NCBI GenBank assembly: GCA_963700285.1
Contig: CAVOXA010000001.1
Location: 448,001-512,000, forward strand
From: an uncultured Chloroflexia bacterium
GTDB taxonomy: Bacteria > Chloroflexota > Anaerolineae > JAAYZQ01
Direction: 5' to 3'
DNA: 64,000 bases
The first letter of the stretch is position 1, and every line of letters starts with the position of its first letter. The notes below the pieces were generated by a model. It did no database searches. It was not told the origin of the DNA and saw nothing but the letters and a program-made list of their open reading frames with translations. Below, one piece after another: positions 44,485-64,000 of the stretch. Made by a program: the position numbers and the translations under genes.

Positions 44485-46146
44485 ATGCGCACATCTGCTG
44501 GCCAGCTTGGAGCACGTCTCCAATCCGCGATGCAGGCCCACAGGGATTTCTGCTTGATCCTTGTGCTGGCTGTATCCTTCCGGGCCATGGCCCTCCTGGT
44601 ATTCCGGCCTGGCGGCTATCTGGGCGAGATGTCTGACTTTGGCTACTATCGCCTACTCCTCAGTTTCACGAATCAGGGTTTTTATCCCCTGGTAGACTTT
44701 TGGGTCGAGTACCCGCCCATCTTTCCCTGGATCCTGGTGGGCCTCTACCGCCTGAGTCTGTTGGTACCAGCCTTGCCCGAGCCAGGGGCCTGGTTCTATC
44801 TCTTGCTCAGCGCCTTTCTGCTGGTCGTCGAGGCTGGCAACCTGGTTCTGTTCTACAACATCAGCCGGCGTCTGTACGGACAAGAGCGAGCCATTCGCTT
44901 GTCCTGGATCTACACCGCACTTCTGGTCCCGGTATTGACGCTGTTCGTCGGCTTTGACGGCCTGTCCCTTCTCTTTCTGCTCTGGGCAGTGTTGCTGACG
45001 CTGGACCAGCGCCCGGTGGGCAGCGCGATCGCGGCAGGCCTGGGTTTCATGACCAAGCTGGTGCCCATCGCGGCTGCTCCTGCTGCCCTGCAGCACATGA
45101 AGCAGAGGTCTCAGCGTCTCAAATACCTGGTTGCTGTCTCGCTGACCGTGCTGGTGATTGCTGTCCCCTTTCTGATCGCCGGCCCGGACTATTTGATCCA
45201 GTCGCTCAAGAGCCCCGTCGTGCGCTCTACCTGGGAGACGGTCTGGGCTCTGATAGACGGCTATTATTCCTTTGGCGTGGCCGGAGGCGTTGACCGCTTT
45301 GATCCGGCCATGGCTGGCGCTGCCCAGCATCCAACGCGCCTGCCCTGGACGCTCATTACCATCGGTTTTCTTCTCTTCTACCTTTTTCTCTACACCCGGC
45401 GCGTGGACTGGACGGATCGCCGCCGGACCGTGGCTTTCACGGCATTGACCCTGAACCTGCTAACCCTCTATTTCAAGGGTTACAGCCCCCAGTTTCTGAT
45501 CATGCTGCTGCCCTTCTTGATCCTGCTCATCCCGGGCTGGCGGGGCATTGCCTACGCGCTACTGCTCAGCTTTATCAACCTGGTCGAGTATCCGCTTTAC
45601 TTTTTGGTCCTGCCGGATGAGCGCTGGTTGCTGGCTGGCACTGTCTTGTTGCGTACCTTGATCCTGATTGTGGTCACGATCGAGTATGCTGCCCAAGTGT
45701 ATGGCTGGCGGATCGACCGTCGTTGGTGGCGGAGGGTGGCTGTTGTAGTGGTAGCCATCGTGGCTGTAGTGGGTGTGATTGGTGCAATCGCCGGTTCTCA
45801 GGCCTACGGGGAATCGCGTTACGCTGCCAGCTCGCATCGACCGGCCATGGACGTCTTGAGCGAGCCGGCCATGGCCGGGGTCACACTGGTCACGGACGAT
45901 CTGCATGCCTACGAGAGTCTCTACCCCCACCTTCGGAGCCAGCTAAGCCTTCACTTGATCGAGACCTACGACTATTTGCCTCCGTGGGAATTCCGGCTGG
46001 AAACCATTGCGACCGGGTCGCCAGGCGAGGTATGGATCTATGCCCCAGCGGAATCCCCCTTGTACGAATGGATGTCTGAGCGCTATCCACCCCTCGCTAC
46101 CCACCAGCTCGACGATTGGGAGCTGTCTGGGTGGGATGCGCGATGA
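44485..46146 (+). CDS. GT-C fold membrane glycosyltransferase (GT87/DUF2029-like)
   Basis: DFWVEYPP, GFMTKLVP, KGYSPQF; multiple TM helices. Confidence 0.8.
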   Translation: MRTSAGQLGARLQSAMQAHRDFCLILVLAVSFRAMALLVFRPGGYLGEMSDFGYYRLLLSFTNQGFYPLVDFWVEYPPIFPWILVGLYRLSLLVPALPEPGAWFYLLLSAFLLVVEAGNLVLFYNISRRLYGQERAIRLSWIYTALLVPVLTLFVGFDGLSLLFLLWAVLLTLDQRPVGSAIAAGLGFMTKLVPIAAAPAALQHMKQRSQRLKYLVAVSLTVLVIAVPFLIAGPDYLIQSLKSPVVRSTWETVWALIDGYYSFGVAGGVDRFDPAMAGAAQHPTRLPWTLITIGFLLFYLFLYTRRVDWTDRRRTVAFTALTLNLLTLYFKGYSPQFLIMLLPFLILLIPGWRGIAYALLLSFINLVEYPLYFLVLPDERWLLAGTVLLRTLILIVVTIEYAAQVYGWRIDRRWWRRVAVVVVAIVAVVGVIGAIAGSQAYGESRYAASSHRPAMDVLSEPAMAGVTLVTDDLHAYESLYPHLRSQLSLHLIETYDYLPPWEFRLETIATGSPGEVWIYAPAESPLYEWMSERYPPLATHQLDDWELSGWDAR

Positions 46147-48365
46147 ATGGTCCGATCGCCCCAGACGCGAAAACTGACCGGCGCGATGGAGCGCTGGCAG
46201 TGGCTCTGTTTGCCCTGCTCTTTAGCGTCTATTTGCTGACCTTCAGTGGCGTTTTTCACGCCAGCGACGAGATGTCGATGCTGGCCGTGACCGACAGCCT
46301 GGCCCGCCGGGGCGCCTGGGACATCGAGCTGCTGCGCTGGATGGGCGAGCAGCAGGGCTCGTTTGGGCCGGATGGGCATCTCTACGGGAGAAAAGGGATT
46401 GGCACGACGCTGGCAGCCCTGCCTCACTACTGGCTGGCCCTGCGGATCGAGGGTTGGGGCAACGTCCAGACGGCGATGCTGACCAATGGCGCAATCACGG
46501 CCCTGACGGGTGTACTGGTCTACCTCCTTCTGCGCAGGCTGCGCTACGGTGACGGCGTGGCTCTGGGTACGGCTCTGGTTTATGGCCTAGCCACCATGGC
46601 CTGGCCCTATGCCCGCTTCCTCTTTAGCGAGTCGCTGGCTGGTCTGGCTCTTATGGCTAGCTTTTTCTTTCTCGTTTGCTTTGGGAACCCCCCTGCCCGC
46701 TCCGCCCGCGAGCGGGGCCGGGACTGGCTCTACGCCTTGCTGGCTGGTACGGGTCTGGGCCTTGCCCTTTTGGCCCGCTTGAACAATGCCCTCGCCGGCC
46801 CGCTTCTGGGTGGACTCTTGCTCTTTTACCTGTACCGCCGCCATGGGAAGAACTGGCGGGCCTGGCTGGGGCCGCTCCTTCTCTTTGGACTGCCAGCGCT
46901 CATGGCCCTGGGCATAACTGCCTGGTACAATTGGCTGCGTTTTGGCAACGCGTTGACGACCGGCTATCTGCCCGAAGAGCGCTTTGCCATGCCTTTTCTG
47001 CAGGGGTTCTACGGGCTGATCCTGAGCCCCGGCAAGGGTCTCTTTTGGTACAACCCGATCCTCTTTGCCTCCCTGGTCGCCTGGCCCGCCTTTTTTCGGC
47101 GTCATCGCGCCGAAGCATTGATGATTGCTTCCATGGTCTTGGTTGGTGTGGCCTTCTATGCTTCGTGGTTCTTGTGGTGGGCAGGCCATGGTTGGGGCCC
47201 GCGTTTCCTGGTAACGATCCTGCCCTTTGCCGTCCTACCTCTGGCACCGGCCCTGGAGGCCGCGTCCCGCCGCCGCGCCCTGGCTCTCGTGGTGGGCGTC
47301 CTGGTGCTGGTGAGTGTTGCGGTGCAACTATTGGCTGTGACCGTCGACTTTAACCTCTACCTGGAAGATATCTACGCTGAACTGGGGCTGTATCACCCGG
47401 CCACCCTCTTTGACCCGGCCTACAGCCCCCTGTTGAGGCAGCTCGCCTACTTGAACCCGGGCAATCTGGATCTAGCCTGGCTACGGGACGGCGCGGTCAA
47501 CTGGGCGGCGCTGCTCATCGGGCTTGGGCTCGTCGTGGCCTCGGGCCTGGGACTGTGGCTTGCCTGGCGCCGGCGGCTGGCCGCTTGGCACGGTGCAGTT
47601 CTGCTGCTGTTGCTTCTGTTTGGCATCGTCCTCTCTTTGTTCAGCTACGCGCCCGAGGGTCGGGTTGCCGTGGCTGCCAGAGACCTGGTCGCCATGGAGA
47701 AGCCAGGCGAGGCGGCAGCCCTGACCGAACCGCTGCTTACAGAACCGTTCCAGGACGCCTACGACGGGCGCCTGTGGGTGTGGGGTGTGCCGTCCAGGGA
47801 GGGAATCGGTGTAGAAAACGAGGGGCTGTGGGCCGCTGGTGCCGGAGATCCGGATGCCGCGGCGGCGCGCTTCCAGACCGGCGCGGTACGTCTCGACCTG
47901 TTCCCGGCGTCCGGCGGGGCCTTTGACGCGGCACGTCTGCCGGTCCAACCTCTGGAAGCGTCCCTGAACCTGGGCGATGTGGTGGCGCTGGTTGCCTTCC
48001 GCCTAGATGATATAGTTGTCCGTCGCGCTGAGATGCTGCCAGTGACGGTCTACTGGCGCGCCCTGGTCCCCATGCCGGTCTCCTATACTGTCTCCGTGCA
48101 GCTCATCGACGAGGGCGGCGTCAAGGCCGGCCAGGTCGACCGCCTGCCCTGCGATGGCGGCTGTCCCACGACTTCCTGGCGGGTGGGCGACGTTGTCGGT
48201 GAGTACTATGAGCTTTCCATCGACCCAGGCGTGCCGCCGGGCCGCTACCAGCTTACTGTCGGCATGTACGATCTGGCTACAGGCGAAGGCCTGCCTCACC
48301 TGGATGCCCAGGGTCAGGTCGTAGCTGACCTGCTCCTGCTGGGTACCATCGACGTCGAACCGTAG
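46143..48365 (+). CDS. GT-C fold membrane glycosyltransferase (PMT/GT39-like) with C-terminal Ig-like domain
   Basis: SDE loop, WPYARFLFSE, SPGKGLFWYNP, WGPRFL, tail PTTSWRVGDVV...GMYD; ATGA overlap with the upstream gene. Confidence 0.8.
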   Translation: MNGPIAPDAKTDRRDGALAVALFALLFSVYLLTFSGVFHASDEMSMLAVTDSLARRGAWDIELLRWMGEQQGSFGPDGHLYGRKGIGTTLAALPHYWLALRIEGWGNVQTAMLTNGAITALTGVLVYLLLRRLRYGDGVALGTALVYGLATMAWPYARFLFSESLAGLALMASFFFLVCFGNPPARSARERGRDWLYALLAGTGLGLALLARLNNALAGPLLGGLLLFYLYRRHGKNWRAWLGPLLLFGLPALMALGITAWYNWLRFGNALTTGYLPEERFAMPFLQGFYGLILSPGKGLFWYNPILFASLVAWPAFFRRHRAEALMIASMVLVGVAFYASWFLWWAGHGWGPRFLVTILPFAVLPLAPALEAASRRRALALVVGVLVLVSVAVQLLAVTVDFNLYLEDIYAELGLYHPATLFDPAYSPLLRQLAYLNPGNLDLAWLRDGAVNWAALLIGLGLVVASGLGLWLAWRRRLAAWHGAVLLLLLLFGIVLSLFSYAPEGRVAVAARDLVAMEKPGEAAALTEPLLTEPFQDAYDGRLWVWGVPSREGIGVENEGLWAAGAGDPDAAAARFQTGAVRLDLFPASGGAFDAARLPVQPLEASLNLGDVVALVAFRLDDIVVRRAEMLPVTVYWRALVPMPVSYTVSVQLIDEGGVKAGQVDRLPCDGGCPTTSWRVGDVVGEYYELSIDPGVPPGRYQLTVGMYDLATGEGLPHLDAQGQVVADLLLLGTIDVEP

Positions 48366-49250: not shown

Positions 49251-51839
49251 ATGCCTTTGCATCACAAATCGCGTCAGAATACTGCGCTCCATCTGTCAGT
49301 TCCGGCAGGTGCAGCGCTGATGCTGATGGTGACTGCGGCCGTACTCTTGAATCTGGTCCTCGGCCAGCCAATTAAGGCGCAAGCCCAGCAGTTGGACCCA
49401 GGAGAATACGAAGACCGAAAAGCGCAACTGGCTGCGCGGGCGGCACAGCCCTTCAAAGATGATGGTATGCGCCAAGAGTGATGACGGGCACAAAGTTGGT
49501 GATGGACCAGCCCCAGAACGTGCCCAAGTACTTTTCCAAGTTTCCCGAACCTGGATATGAGAAACGTACGGACCTGATCCTGACGCTTGATGATAGCAGC
49601 TCCAAGTCCCTTACTGTGCAAAGGGCGCAAACGGCCGTGAACCTCGCAGACGCAAACCCTGAAGCCAATGAGACGGTGAACGTTTTCTACGCTGCCGAGA
49701 TGGTGACGGGGACGCTCTATGAGTTTGGCTATACCCTGGAGCCGGCGGAACAGGACTTTGAGCAGATCCACTCAGGGAGGCGACAGGGTGTCGTGTTTGT
49801 CTCGCAGCGTTCCGGATCCGGGGCTCGACTGTACTTTCTGCCGCTGAATGACGACCTGCTACCAGCGGGGTCTCCAGATCCGTTGACCGACGGCGTGATC
49901 ACCGATCCCCGCCGGCCTGCGGCGTCCGCTGATGGCCGGTTCATCATATTCGATGCCGATTACTACAAGCCCTACCATGTGTCTAACGAGACAAAACAGC
50001 GAATCCACACGCTTGACCTTTCCAGTGCTGCTGTGCGCCGGTTGACCTCGGATCCCTTTGGCGCGAGCAGCGATTGGGGCGCTAGCCTCGACCACGACGG
50101 GGCACGGTTTGTAATGATCTCCAATCGCGACGGCTCGCCGCGCATGGTTATCGCATCGGTGGCGAGTGGCCAGGGCGGTGGTTTTGGAAACGAAGTAGGC
50201 CAGGCATCCAGCGCGGACTGGAGCCATGTACGCAACGAAATTGCGTTCGCCGATGCCAGCCGACTCAAGATCCTTGACGTCGACACAGAGGAAGTTGCCG
50301 ATCTCCTCTATGCGAGTGGGGCAGATAGTCCCCGATTCTCTCCCAGTGGTGACCAGATCGCCTTCTCTGTTGGGACAGGTCTGCAAGTTGTGAACCGCGA
50401 CGGAACCGGCAGCCGGCCCGTGGCTGGTGGTTGTTTCTATCCCACTTGGGCGGGTGAATCCCATCTGATTGCCCAGTGCAGCGTGAGTGGCAACATCGAC
50501 CTGTATCTCATCGAGGTCGGTGGGGGATCGAAGACTCGTCTGACCACCGATCCCGCAGAGGACAGGGAACCAACCTTCGTTCTAGCAACTGGGCCGACGC
50601 CTTCCCACAAGATTGCGATTTCGCCCTCCTTGAAGTTGCTCTCTTGGCCGCTGGAACCTCTGCCAGACGCCGAGACGGCGTTGGATGAAATCGAAAGCCA
50701 GGGCGGTAACGCGCCCGAGGTGTATTGTTGGCTGAGCAAAGCCGATATCTGGGACGGGTATGCAAAAGGTTTGCCCTTCCACAACTTTTCCCTGGAGTTA
50801 GGCCAGGGCTACTTTGTTCGGGCCCAAGAATCCAGTACCTGGGCACGTCCCGGCTGGCCCCCAGAGACTCCAGTGCCGGTGGACCTCAACCCCATCTGGA
50901 CGCTGATCGGTCTGCCAAGGTTGCCAGAGCCGATGACGGCTGGAGATCTTGTTACCGATGCCAACGGTCAGGGTGGGGCTTGCACCGAGGTCGCTCGTTG
51001 GGAGACATCCGTCTCAGACTATCAGATTTTCTGCCCTGCCTGGCAGCGACTTTTATCTTACGAATGATGAAGGCTACTTTGTCAAGTGCGCGAACGCCAT
51101 CACCTATCGGCCTGGAGAGGGTAGGGTGCAGCAGAATCTGTCAGCAAAGCCGATTCCTGTCGAGCCGGCGACCCTGGCGTCAGTGGCGGACCCGTTGATC
51201 TCTGATGTGTTGATCACTAATCGCCGCGACGTAGCGTTCACGGTCACCTGGCGGACGGACCGGGCTAGTACGGGCTGGGTAGAGTATGCGAAAGACCTGA
51301 CAGGTTCTGAAAACCTGTCAGGTCTGGCGGCTCACGATGACCTGGGCCAGGGGACCGTCTCGCAGGTCCACCACGTCACCCTCACTGGTCTCACCCCCGA
51401 GACGACTTACTACTTCCGCGTGCACTCGGGCGAGACGGTGGACGACAGTGAGGGGCGCTCTATCAGGTTACGACCAAGGAGACTGAGGTGCCGCCAGTGC
51501 CAAACCTGGCCTACGGCCAGGTCCTAATCCCGGACGGGAAACCGGCTGTGGGCGCGTTGGTTCGAGCCTGGCTGGTAGACGAGGGCGGCAACGAGTCGGA
51601 GCCCTTGTCGGCTGTAGTGGACGGCTACGGCTATTGGTCCCTCAACCTGCCTGTGCAGGATTGTGAGGGAGTTCAGCTCAAACTGGAGGCCATCGGCCAG
51701 CGGGGCGCCGCAGCGGAGCAGGTCCTGCCAGCGTGTGAGGTACGGCCAGCGGTGACAATCAAGCTGCCCGCCGAGAGCCCCGTCGAGGACACCACCTTGG
51801 AGAATGTACCTGCCCATCATCCTGCGGCAGTCTCGATAG
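49251..51839 (+). CDS. Secreted multidomain surface protein: TolB/PD40-like propeller, repeats, FN3-like domain, C-terminal YLPIILR motif (about 4 frameshifts)
   Basis: Signal peptide (ORF 49251), PRFSPSGDQIAF and SADGRFIIF repeats (ORF 49478), FN3-like VTLTGLTPETTYYFRV (ORF 50949), ORF 51488, shifted end MYLPIILRQSR* at 51839. Confidence 0.7.
51293..51325. repeat. 33-nt palindromic element in frame within a CDS
   Basis: AGACCTGACAGGTT-CTGAA-AACCTGTCAGGTCT, a perfect 14-bp stem, translated within KDLTGSENLSGL. Confidence 0.85.
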
Positions 51840-52058
51840 GGAAGCAGCCGCTGAGTAGCATGCAAAGAGTGGCCCGGGTGGCGGGCATCTGTTGCTGGTG
51901 GCCGGGGAAACAGGCGAGCTGCCTTTGGGCCGTGATCATGACACCTTACTGTGCTGCTTGACTGCCGGCTGGGCAATCTCCCAGACCGGTGCGCTCACTC
52001 CCGCGGGTCACGGACCTGCTTGGAGCTGCGGACAGGTCAAGGAGGATGATGCGGACGG

Positions 52059-52829
52059 TCACGGCCCCTGAAACAGCCGCACCGTCTGGTAGTCATTTTC
52101 GCACGGAAAGCCGGCCAGTTGCGACCAGCCCACATACCCGTCTCGAACCTCAATGATGTGACTCGTTTCTGTGCCGAAACCATCAAGGCCATGGTTGCAG
52201 ATGGAGTATGGACCCTTTTTCGGGAGGTGCGAGCGCAGCATGGCCTTCAAGGCGCCGATACTGGTGATCGACTGTATCATGCCCCAGGCCACCTCGTGGC
52301 GGATCCGCGAACTTTGACTGTGGACCTCGGCCCGCTCGGGCTCGTGGGAGATGAGCGCAAAGTCGTTGGTCATGACAAAGTTGCCTTGGAACTCCTGGAT
52401 CTGGAACTCGGCCCCCATCACCTCGACCAGCAGCGTCCACGCCGGTGAGGCGACCAGGATCTTGCCACCTTGCACCCTGTGTTCGGCCACAAAGCCCTCG
52501 ACGATGGCTGGGACATCCTCCCGGCTTTGAGCCCGGCGTATCAGGTCTTCGCAGAGCAAGTCGTAGGTCACGTCAGGCGTTGAACACAGGTGCGTGTTGG
52601 CCACGCATATCCCATGCCTGTTCACGCCAATGGCGATGCCCTGCAACTCGCCCGTCTTGAGATTCGCGCCTTTCAGCACGTGGTAGTCGGGAGTCGACTG
52701 CCAGACCGTCATGCGGTTCGTCAGGTACTGGCTCGCCAAGTCCCGATTCTTGAAGAACAGGATCCCGTCTGGAATCTGAATGACGCCGGCCGTGCAGCCT
52801 TTGGGTACCTCTTGACGCGGACCTGACAT
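52059..52829 (-). CDS. Ntn-hydrolase (C45/AAT or C69-like) protein
   Basis: Near-N-terminal GCTAG...FFKNRD, GVNRHGICVAN, VMTNDF. Confidence 0.75.
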   Translation of the reverse strand: MSGPRQEVPKGCTAGVIQIPDGILFFKNRDLASQYLTNRMTVWQSTPDYHVLKGANLKTGELQGIAIGVNRHGICVANTHLCSTPDVTYDLLCEDLIRRAQSREDVPAIVEGFVAEHRVQGGKILVASPAWTLLVEVMGAEFQIQEFQGNFVMTNDFALISHEPERAEVHSQSSRIRHEVAWGMIQSITSIGALKAMLRSHLPKKGPYSICNHGLDGFGTETSHIIEVRDGYVGWSQLAGFPCENDYQTVRLFQGP

Positions 52830-52844: not shown

Positions 52845-54435
52845 CTAGATGGCCTCAACCGGTTCGCCAAGGCCCTCGACCAACATCTGGTAGGTTTTTT
52901 CGATGCGGTCCCAGTGTTCCTCCCGGTCTAGGGACCAGAAGCGGCCGATGACCGTCGCCAACTGTCCTACGCCCAATCGTTCGGCTTCGCGCTCGACCTG
53001 TTCGACATAGATTCGCGCCGCTCTCCGGCCGCTCTCCGCGCCGACCCAGCATGGCGTGCATATGAACCTCCGGCACGCCCTCGCGGCGGGCCATCTCCAT
53101 CAGCGCCAGTAGGTGGTCCACCGAACCGTGAGAACTGTAGAAGGACACGATGCCCAGCAGATGCAGGCGGGTGCCGTCCTGCTTGGCGCCGCGCATGGCC
53201 CATAGGAACGCCTCGTTCTCAAACCAGGAGCCGTCCTCCAGGGCATGGTTGATACGCACCCGGTCGGCGGCTACCACGCGGCCCCCGCCGATGTGCAGGT
53301 GCCCTGATTCGGAGTTGCCCACTGTGCCGGCCGGCATGCCCACGGCTGGCCCGGAGGCCTGGATCTGTGCGCTGGGCCAGGCCGCGACCAGGTTATCCAT
53401 CACGGGCGTGTTGGCCTGAGCAATCAGATCACCCGGTCCGCCATCGCCAATGCCCCACCCATCCAGGATCAGGAGCAGAACGCGCTGCCGTCCTTCAGTT
53501 TCCGTTGTTGTCAGGGGGCTGCTGATGAGGCTCTGCCCGGTCATCGCCTCGGGCTGGGGCAACCCCATCAATTGCAGTACCGTGGGCGCCACGTCGGTCA
53601 GCGCGCCGCCACGACGTAGGCAAAGGCCATCCTGCTGGCCGGGGTTGATGAGGATGAAGGGCACTGGGCTGTCGGTGTGCCCGGTGTCGATGGCGCCGTC
53701 GGGATAGTACCAGCGTTCGACAGTGCCATGGTCGGCCGTCAGGACTGTGATCACCCCCGCCGCACGGGCAGCCTCTACCATGCGCCCCGCCTGGGTATCC
53801 ACAGTCTCTACGGCAGCCCGAATGGCTTCGGGGTTCTCGATATGTCCGATGACGTCCACGTTGCACAGATTCACCGTGACAAGGGCATTGGCGGGATCGC
53901 GCAGCGCCTCGATTGCCGCGTCGGCCACCGCAGCCGCCTTCATCTCCGGAGGCATGTCTGCATGGGAGGCTGGCCGCGGGGAGTCGACGACGATTCGCTC
54001 TTCGCCGGGAAAGGCCCCCTGCCCCTTGCCATTGAGGAAGAAACTGACGTGGATGGCTTTTTCTGACTCGACGACCTTGGTCTGCCGCAATCCGGCCTTG
54101 CTGACGACCTCGAAGAGGGTGTCTACCAATTGCCCCTGGGGCGGGAAGGCGACTTGGACATCCAGATCGGGGTGGTACTCGATCATGGTCGCAAAGTGTA
54201 CCGTCATGGGTGAGCGCGGAAAATGGGTAAAGTCGCGGTCGACGAAGGCTGAAGTCAGTTCGACCTCCCGCTCGCCCCGTATGTCATAGAAAACGACATA
54301 ATCCCCATCCTGGATGCTGCCTACCGGTTGGCCATCAGCATCCACCCGGACCAGTGGTTCCAACGATTCATCCTCTTGGCCCGCGCGGTAGGCTGTACGT
54401 ACCGCTTCAGCCATCGGGTATTTGTCTGCTGTCAT
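52845..54435 (-). CDS. 2,3-BPG-independent phosphoglycerate mutase-like enzyme, circularly permuted (frameshift near 53010)
   Basis: Canonical C-terminal motifs (NVDVIGH, TADHG, GHT, DVAPTVL...MTGQSL) precede canonical N-terminal motifs (LILDGWG, GNSESGH, GRFWSLDRE). GGAGG RBS before ATG 54435. Confidence 0.88.
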
Positions 54436-54793
54436 GTACTTCCTCCGGAAGACTGGTGTGGTTGGCGTTCGAAGTCGCAAGTGCCCTCTCGGGGCTACCA
54501 AGGGCGCGATGGCCAGACCTGACTCCTGCACGGCGGTCCATCTCGCTGCCCCGATGGCGGCGAACGGCGGACATTGTACATCAGATGGCCGGTTTGTGGA
54601 AATCCGGATCTGGCGGTCGTTCGCGGTGCTTCGATGGAGGACGGTGGGCAAGGGTACTCGGGGGAGAAGGGAGGCGATGCTTGCCAAATCACTCGTGTCA
54701 GGCTATAATGAATGTCACAAATGTGCAGCCGGGGTACCGGATGCGCACGATTCCATTGACTTTCGTACTGCGAATCACAGACTGGGGGACAGA

Positions 54794-63344: not shown

Positions 63345-63464
63345 TCCAGCCTTCTGTAAGTGGGGCAGGTACCTTGCACGCGAAGGGCCCTCTCGGGCCA
63401 GTTGAGTCAAGTTGGCCGGAAACCAACAAAAGTCGGTAAGCGGCTAGCTGTGGGGAGATCGATC

Positions 63465-64000
63465 ATGGTACAGGAACGAGTAGACGCCGGAGACGACATT
63501 ATCATCTGCCGGGATGTGGAAAAGTGGTTTGATGACTTTCACGTGCTGCGCGGGATCAGCATATCTATCAGAAAAGGAGAGGTGGTGGTCGTCGCTGGGC
63601 CATCGGGCTCGGGCAAGTCCACCTTTATCCGTACCATCAACCGTCTCGAGGAGCACCAGAAGGGCGACATCATCGTCGATGGTATCGAACTGACCAACGA
63701 CGTTCGCAACATTGCCGCCATTCGCAGCGAGATTGGCATGGTCTTCCAGTCGTTCAATCTCTTTCCCCACCTGACAGTGCGTGCAGAACATTACCCTGGC
63801 ACCCATACGGGTGCGCAAGTGGCCCAAGGACAAGGCCGACGAGACTGCCTACCAGGCTGCTGGACCGAGTGGGCATCCCCGAACAGGCCGACGAAATACC
63901 CGGGCCAGCTTTCAGGTGGTCAGCAGCAGCGAACGGCCATCGCCCGCGCCCTGGCCATGGAGCCCAAGATCATGCTCTTTGACGAGCCTACCTCGGCACT
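63465..64000 (+). CDS. aapP: Amino acid ABC transporter ATP-binding protein (AapP/GlnQ-like), partial and frameshifted
   Basis: Manual translation gives VEKWFDDFHVLRGIS, GPSGSGKST, MVFQSFNLFPH, LSGGQQQ, MLFDEPTSA; runs off the window. Confidence 0.88.
   Translation, partial: MVQERVDAGDDIIICRDVEKWFDDFHVLRGISISIRKGEVVVVAGPSGSGKSTFIRTINRLEEHQKGDIIVDGIELTNDVRNIAAIRSEIGMVFQSFNLFPHLTVRAEHYPGTHTGAQVAQGQGRRDCLPGCWTEWASPNRPTKYPGQLSGGQQQRTAIARALAMEPKIMLFDEPTSA

Follow-up and report, generated by a model that had tools for sequence, protein, structure and literature searches.

The window analysed here, a 64,000-nucleotide stretch of genomic DNA from an uncultured Chloroflexia bacterium, encodes a circularly permuted relative of GpmI, a cofactor-independent phosphoglycerate mutase (iPGM), in which the two halves of the protein are exchanged and the substrate pocket is altered. 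This permuted form is common to many uncultured bacteria. Because the altered pocket is accompanied by a second mutase in nearly every genome, the permuted enzyme likely has a different job. We consider the chances about even that it is an accessory phosphatase or phosphotransferase that acts through a phosphoserine intermediate on a bisphosphate, with 2,3-bisphosphoglycerate or its cyclic form (cDPG) as the first candidate and the nucleoside 3',5'-bisphosphate pAp as the second.

The permuted gene exchanges the two halves of GpmI

In the canonical GpmI order, the N-terminal part of the phosphatase domain is followed by the transferase domain and then by the C-terminal part of the phosphatase domain. 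The window protein departs from this order, with its halves swapped at about position 213-217 (Table 1). The original prediction had described a protein that starts in the middle of GpmI, runs through the canonical C-terminus, and continues with the canonical N-terminus, and three alignments bear this out. Residues 9-304 of the window protein align to positions 214-504 of the NCBIfam model TIGR01307. Against the Geobacillus structure 1EJJ, query residues 10-304 map to chain residues 218-509, and query residues 317-471 map to chain residues 4-158. In P0004, an intact relative with 87% identity, residues 9-304 match 1EJJ chain residues 217-509 and residues 318-525 match residues 5-212, and therefore the GpmI halves abut at ~213-217. 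No part of either half is duplicated and no part is missing. The predicted 13-residue linker between the halves was found in one frame; across the permuted family it varies in length and sequence, with little constraint and low model confidence.

Table 1. Features of the permuted gene and its immediate surroundings in the window.
Feature	Position	Strand	Evidence or content
First half of permuted gene (aa 1-304), equivalent to canonical GpmI 217-509	53524..54435	-	NCBIfam, 1EJJ, and P0004 alignments
Content of first half			Second part of transferase domain (R53, R56 = Arg261, Arg264) and most of phosphatase domain
Phosphatase residues of first half			K126 = Lys336; metal ligands D194, H198, D235, H236, H253
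Linker, 13 residues (aa 305-317), old C-terminus to old N-terminus	53485..53523	-	One open frame
Second half, main-frame part (aa 318-474), equivalent to canonical GpmI 5-161	53015..53484	-	1EJJ alignment
Residues of second half			D325 (Asp12), S375 (Ser62, nucleophile), H379 (His66), H436 (His123), R466 (Arg153)
Non-canonical residues of second half			New R465; G467 replacing Asp154; invariant E468
Extra frame-shifting base	53012..53014	-	Absent from 3/3 aligned relatives and 3/3 covering contigs
True C-terminal part in shifted frame, equivalent to canonical GpmI ~162-213, with TAG stop	52845..53011	-	
Counterparts of Arg185 and Arg191	52941-52943, 52923-52925	-	Beyond the frameshift
ATG start codon	54433-54435	-	
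GGAGG ribosome-binding site 5' of ATG	54442..54446	-	Sequence
Sigma-70-like promoter upstream of gene, weak (9/12)	54573..54602	-	Consensus match only
C45-like (Ntn-hydrolase) gene, 15 nt past stop	52059..52829	-	NF040521, E 2.9e-11, below cut-off

The window reading frame scores 390 bits on TIGR01307 and passes the cut-off of 330.65, with intact relatives scoring 449 and 437, although for permuted proteins this score is a sum over the two swapped stretches. The permuted protein falls below the NF003897 cut-off of 862. Its 185-bit match to PF01676 identifies the metalloenzyme core of the alkaline phosphatase superfamily, and both the two-metal site and the serine nucleophile are found. With 33 bits on TIGR00306 against a cut-off of 320, it is not a member of the ApgM family.

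The gene had also been predicted to encode one clean protein down to the TAG at 52845-52847. The C-terminus quoted in that prediction exists, but it lies in another frame, and the frameshift was missed. As assembled, the main frame follows GpmI as far as residue 474, loses the match there, and ends at a TGA at 52855-52857; the final 52 residues, two substrate arginines among them, are thereby lost. Compared with three aligned relatives, the window carries a single additional base at ~53012-53014. This base is missing from all three public contigs that cover the site, one of which is 235 nt long and shows just one other difference. Other genes of the same assembly, sat and the adjacent AP-family gene, are also in broken frames, and the permuted gene in genome G001, from the same genus, carries other single-base indels. 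Given the three covering contigs without the base and the other broken genes, the extra base is probably an assembly error. Two further regions of the window appear to be split by frameshifts, one encoding a beta-propeller/fibronectin-like surface protein (49478-51961, plus strand) and the other a glnQ-like ATPase (63360-63998, plus strand), and these splits are consistent with indel errors in the assembly.

The permutation is natural and widespread

The prediction of a natural circular permutant is upheld by homologues with the same order, a contig that bridges the linker, and purifying selection in both halves. The best 120 matches of a homologue search comprised the window protein and 119 other 90%-identity clusters, which are colinear with it, cover 96-100% of the query, and share 74-87% identity. 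An independent contig from another sequencing run (X5 record 30) bridges the linker with no gap, two near-identical contigs tile over it, and a repeat check found no notable repeat at the junction of the halves. The colinear homologues, the bridging and tiling contigs, and the repeat-free junction rule out misassembly or a repeat-driven rearrangement. In comparisons with six relatives, dN/dS was 0.03-0.14 in each half, and in the linker it was mostly close to 0.5 or higher; the substitution pattern thus indicates that both halves are under purifying selection, with dN/dS of ~0.1.

The 150 top-scoring representatives at 50% identity comprised 17 permuted, 132 canonical, and one partial sequence, and the swapped order was found in 175 of 309 classified sequences. 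Related loci are assigned in their records to Anaerolineae, Desulfobacterales, Syntrophaceae, and Gemmatimonadota. Within the class of the window's genome, 25 of 151 genomes carry the permuted form: 17 have the type found in the window (clade A) and eight have a sister type (clade B), with seven of these eight assigned by score band. It also occurs in 20 of 301 genomes of Desulfobacterota, the phylum of genome G176. A search of a plasmid collection gave 46 matches, of which the best 10 were two-piece alignments to canonical-type proteins at ~40% identity, and no RNA holder is listed for the stretch. The ESM Atlas gave only automatic names, iPGM and sulfatase-like, and databases label permuted members as ordinary iPGM or as alkaline phosphatase family.

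Fold and phylogeny of the permuted enzyme

In the Caenorhabditis elegans iPGM, the transferase domain is described as spanning residues 96-338 and the phosphatase domain residues 27-95 and 339-538 (PMC8113725). The cut in the permuted protein maps to ~237 of the C. elegans chain, inside the transferase domain. Since the linker joins the old termini and the new ones lie in the interior of the transferase domain, the phosphatase domain is turned into a single uninterrupted insertion in that domain, an arrangement that would keep both interdomain hinges. An AlphaFold2 model of P0004, calculated from a 40-row alignment, has a pLDDT of 89.5 and a pTM of 0.84, with low values only at the linker (under 50 at residues 312-314) and the C-terminal tail. 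The model of a clade-B protein has a pLDDT of 91.3. Structure searches with the P0004 model returned iPGM structures as the best matches. Because searches of this kind follow sequence order and only one half of the protein was aligned, they have no bearing on the pocket, the geometry of which we infer from alignment alone.

Trees of 42 rows, built on an alignment from clade A and clade B profiles that may bias the result, place clades A and B apart from the rest with support of 100/100, or 95 when 69 motif columns are dropped. A single origin of all permuted forms was not rejected, with p-AU of 0.33 for all columns and 0.83 with the same 69 columns dropped.

The catalytic centre is kept and the substrate pocket is altered

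We take Ser62 to be the nucleophile of GpmI and Asp12, Asp403, His407, Asp444, His445, and His462 to be its metal ligands, with numbering according to the 1EJJ alignment. His123, Arg153, Arg185, Arg191, Arg261, Arg264, and Lys336 presumably contact the substrate, and we assume that Asp154 is the general base that binds and reads the free hydroxyl of phosphoglycerate. The seven catalytic and metal residues that were predicted to be kept are all found in the window protein (Table 1), and the loop changes noted at the outset (SDGGVHS to SFYSSHG, LDGRD to LGRRG, and NFRxDR to DIRGER) are present as written. The pocket is indeed altered, but the original prediction understated what it retains: the counterparts of His123, Arg153, Arg185, Arg191, Arg261, Arg264, and Lys336 are all there.

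Both halves of 308 sequences were aligned to profiles, giving 152 rows for clade A, eight for clade B, 15 for other permuted proteins, and 133 for canonical proteins; clade-A rows were defined by the 118-123 motif, and some genes are present twice. Counterparts of Asp12, Ser62, His66, His123, Arg153, Asp403, His407, Asp444, His445, and His462 are found in 152/152 clade-A rows. Arg261, Arg264, and Lys336 are found in 151/152 and Arg185 and Arg191 in 150/152, the remainder being gaps. Position 154, an aspartate in 129/133 canonical rows, is glycine in every clade-A row (152/152), and position 152, a glycine in canonical enzymes, is arginine in every clade-A row (152/152). Clade A further has glycine in place of Asp151, threonine in place of Asn447, in most rows alanine in place of Tyr337, a Phe-Tyr pair beside His123, and a remodelled 119-125 loop. 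About ten pocket positions are fixed in non-canonical states. Glu155 (E468 of the window protein) is invariant in clade A, and Glu265 is invariant in clades A and B. In clade B, Asp154 is replaced by serine in 8/8 rows, and Arg260 and Lys120 are gained. Judged from these alignments, clades A and B have both lost the acid and gained basic residues, by different routes.

The permuted representatives P0127, P0133, P0135, and P0192 keep the canonical pocket, including Asp154. Permutation by itself therefore does not change function, and these four proteins could be intermediates or could stem from a separate permutation event at that site.

In the reaction that we propose for the permuted enzyme, a phosphoserine intermediate would, as before, arise at the two-metal centre and Ser375, and the retained Arg/His/Lys cage would still hold a small di-anionic core. 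The two domains would close over the di-anionic substrate and a phosphoryl group would pass to Ser375. Glycine in place of Asp154, together with the adjacent extra arginine, would provide both the space and the charge to accommodate a second phosphate at the former hydroxyl site, and the loss of Asp154 would disfavour return of the phosphate to the substrate. Because no free hydroxyl would be activated, the phosphate would go to water or to another acceptor. The room for a second phosphate and the disfavoured return together suggest an enzyme that removes or passes on one phosphate of a bisphosphate.

Gene neighbourhoods differ between clades A and B

Clade A has neither a conserved operon nor a conserved importer, and most loci show a solitary, housekeeping-like placement. 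Across 131 clade-A loci, a set from which nine repeated or off-clade loci had been dropped and in which many loci are short or kin, genes within 3 kb encode PHP phosphoesterases (11), His-phosphatases (8), NUDIX proteins (7), macro domains (5), AP-family proteins (5), APS kinase (2), and sulfotransferases (2). The usual convergent neighbour of the permuted gene is a pair of GT-C membrane glycosyltransferase genes (GT87 and PMT-like), found in the window at 44485-48365 on the plus strand. A PMT-like gene lies within 3 kb in 23/131 clade-A loci, and the placement of the pair probably reflects synteny only. The C45-like gene downstream of the permuted gene was considered as a partner and rejected, as it was found only in the same-genus genome G001 among the first 49 mapped loci.

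The clade-B genes lie in an operon with genes for HAD phosphatases in 8/9 loci and a second ApgM in 6/9. This operon (L064-L071, L073, and L075) encodes an RpiR regulator, an ABC importer of the Fe3+/organophosphate class, two or three HADs, the permuted iPGM, and ApgM, and further members are a TIM-barrel protein, a PRK/uridine-kinase-like kinase, a PiT phosphate transporter, DUF47, and PfkB. It probably imports and dephosphorylates organophosphates, feeding the phosphoglycerate pool, and is an undescribed operon for organophosphate uptake and breakdown. No CpgS was recognised in nine mapped clade-B loci.

The permuted enzyme accompanies another mutase

The original prediction had called for a search of the genome for a canonical gpmI or gpmA. 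The window's genome has neither a canonical GpmI nor GpmA (dPGM, TIGR01258); it does have an ApgM, encoded on a small contig, that scores over the cut-off of NF003160. Among five carriers examined, dPGM (TIGR01258) was over the cut-off in one. In the 151 genomes of the class, ApgM is present in 16/17 clade-A carriers (with one match partial), in 8/8 clade-B carriers, and in 0/12 carriers of canonical GpmI, counts that overstate independence because the genomes are kin. In Desulfobacterota, all 20 carriers of the permuted form have ApgM and seven of the 20 also have a canonical-order GpmI. The canonical-order GpmI-type genes in these seven genomes encode proteins of ~550 residues (G176:C5, G218:C2, G254:C67, G285:C184, G376:C35, G402:C46, and G449:C8), and each genome thus holds three iPGM-family genes: GpmI-type, ApgM, and permuted. 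ApgM is the probable housekeeping mutase of the window's genome, and the permuted enzyme is probably not the cell's housekeeping mutase. The earlier suggestion that the protein may act on another substrate draws indirect support from the loss of Asp154 and from the presence of another mutase in nearly every carrier. Not every ApgM-type protein is a mutase. Bacteria also often hold two mutase types (PMC2964296), and on both counts the redundancy is suggestive only.

The permuted enzyme could instead still be a 2-/3-phosphoglycerate mutase that serves as a second isozyme with Glu155 or Glu265 replacing Asp154, a possibility that we take seriously without thinking it probable. Such a role would fit the retention of the seven basic contacts to the substrate and of every metal ligand, the passing of the TIGR01307 equivalog cut-off, the solitary, housekeeping-like location at most loci, and the existence of four permuted representatives with a canonical pocket. 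It would also fit the invariance of Glu155 in clade A and of Glu265 in clades A and B, with an invariant glutamate at 263 also near, and the finding that 3/15 same-family genomes, which are 75-94% complete, showed no ApgM. However, a second isozyme fits less well with the distribution of ApgM, which accompanies canonical GpmI in 0/12 cases in the class and permuted forms in 24/25 cases there and 20/20 in the second phylum. The roughly ten pocket positions fixed in non-canonical states, and the clade-B genes that adjoin a second ApgM in one operon, also speak against it.

A link to sulfate activation within the class

In the class, 17/17 clade-A carriers have APS kinase, compared with 102/151 genomes overall, and 17/17 have ATP sulfurylase, compared with 95/151. 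A module of sat, an AP-family gene, and cysC was found in 16/16 fetched loci, and its AP-family protein is present in 16/17 carriers compared with 60/151 class genomes. The module (G000:C1 ~183800-188300, locus L173, and L174-L188) has variants with an optional HAD gene and an optional second AP-family gene. Its AP-family protein of ~460 residues is fused to Sat in 5/16 loci and has no NCBIfam or PDB match. In a few loci sulfate-activation or sulfation genes are close to the permuted gene: L116 has the order PHP, cysC, sat, permuted gene, sulfotransferase; L081 has cysC directly upstream of the permuted gene; and L138 has two sulfotransferase-like genes. PHP neighbours score best against a 3',5'-nucleoside bisphosphate phosphatase model, below its cut-off.

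These observations raise the alternative that clade A serves sulfate activation or sulfation by hydrolysing or recycling PAP, PAPS, or APS or by transferring phosphate among them, which we consider unlikely. The carrier counts, the module, the direct neighbours at L116, L081, and L138 and at five loci with the AP-family gene, the PHP neighbours, and the new aromatic residues beside His123 would all suit such a role. Outside the class, though, APS kinase is present in only 6/20 Desulfobacterota carriers compared with 151/301 genomes overall, which leaves a general PAPS link unsupported, and neighbours of this kind occur at only ~8/131 loci. Within Desulfobacterota, five carriers that group together at lower scores all have APS kinase and a nearby PHP gene. 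PHP genes and a CysQ-like gene that scores below its cut-off are, moreover, already present in the window's genome. The iPGM site is described as closing into a solvent-inaccessible cavity (PMC5382265), which would be tight for a nucleotide. The link to sulfate activation is thus real in the class and at a few loci elsewhere and is not general, and the association within the class may reflect kinship. A role as replacement for a missing ATP sulfurylase was rejected, as all 17 class carriers have Sat.

Other candidate substrates and explanations

Two further links were examined. A glucosyl- or mannosyl-3-phosphoglycerate phosphatase was rejected because the GpgS/MpgS synthase (NF010496, TIGR02460) was over the cut-off in 0/5 carriers. 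The window's genome encodes a cDPG-synthetase-like P-loop protein (G000:C10 693637-694974, locus L244) with an E-value of 1.7e-7 to PDB 9SXB, the gene for which adjoins an amidinotransferase-like gene. A cDPG link for clade A through this gene found no support, as it is present in 14/17 carriers compared with 118/151 genomes and is not enriched. No 2-phosphoglycerate-kinase motif was found in the window's genome.

An enzyme that keeps intramolecular transfer as a mutase of another small phospho-acid, a phosphoglycerate analogue, seems improbable. The phosphoserine machinery and the hinge arrangement are intact, and fold relatives in NCBIfam, phosphopentomutase and PhpG, have other chemistry. 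However, the 131 clade-A loci hold no pathway genes for such a substrate, and the loss of the aspartate that reads the hydroxyl would argue against transfer back. That the window copy is a recent pseudogene with a real frameshift, or that its order is an assembly artefact, is hardly credible: the assembled frame does end short of the final 52 residues with their two substrate arginines, but the extra base is absent from 3/3 covering contigs, indels occur in other genes of the assembly and differ in the same-genus G001 copy, dN/dS is ~0.1, 175/309 sequences share the swapped order, and the junction is free of repeats.

Relation to known enzymes

The permuted enzyme is ~40% identical over both halves to GpmI/GpmM (TIGR01307; PF06415 and PF01676; PDB 1EJJ, 1O98, 2IFY, 4MY4, and 5VPU), with which it shares the fold, the serine nucleophile, the two-metal ligands, and the Arg/His/Lys substrate cage. 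It differs in its swapped halves, its new termini within the transferase domain, and its pocket substitutions, and it accompanies ApgM rather than replacing it. Because it has neither the canonical order nor Asp154, we do not class the permuted enzyme as GpmI. Archaeal-type ApgM (TIGR00306, NF003160) has the same alkaline phosphatase superfamily core and metal ligands, but its similarity to the permuted protein is weak (E 3e-8) and it is encoded by a separate gene in the window's genome. DeoB phosphopentomutase, PhpG, and nucleotide pyrophosphatases share the metalloenzyme core (Z ~10-11) and provide a precedent for new chemistry, but they are without the iPGM transferase domain, the whole of which the permuted protein keeps. 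The cDPG hydrolase of Methanothermobacter thermautotrophicus, described as an activity with one form membrane-bound (PMC1224877), offers a candidate reaction for a two-phosphate pocket.

Targeted literature searches, with subscription journals and supplements outside their scope, found no paper on the permuted form and none on a link to sulfation, and the string 'permut' is absent from the main text of a 2010 survey of bacterial mutases (PMC2964296). A permuted enzyme of central metabolism that is under selection in several phyla, both with and without pocket remodelling, represents a rare series for relating topology to function. Tentatively, and with more doubt than conviction, we suggest that one permutation founded a large family of enzymes of uncultured anaerobes that process bisphosphates and have been mislabelled as glycolytic mutases. 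Clade A could then supply the gene so far lacking for the breakdown of 2,3-bisphosphoglycerate or cDPG in bacteria beside methanogens, or a new enzyme of pAp/PAPS recycling, with the permutants that have a canonical pocket as the surviving intermediate. Since permuted proteins score over the equivalog cut-off for GpmI and databases list them as glycolytic mutases, pathway reconstructions for Anaerolineae and Desulfobacterota may count the wrong enzyme.
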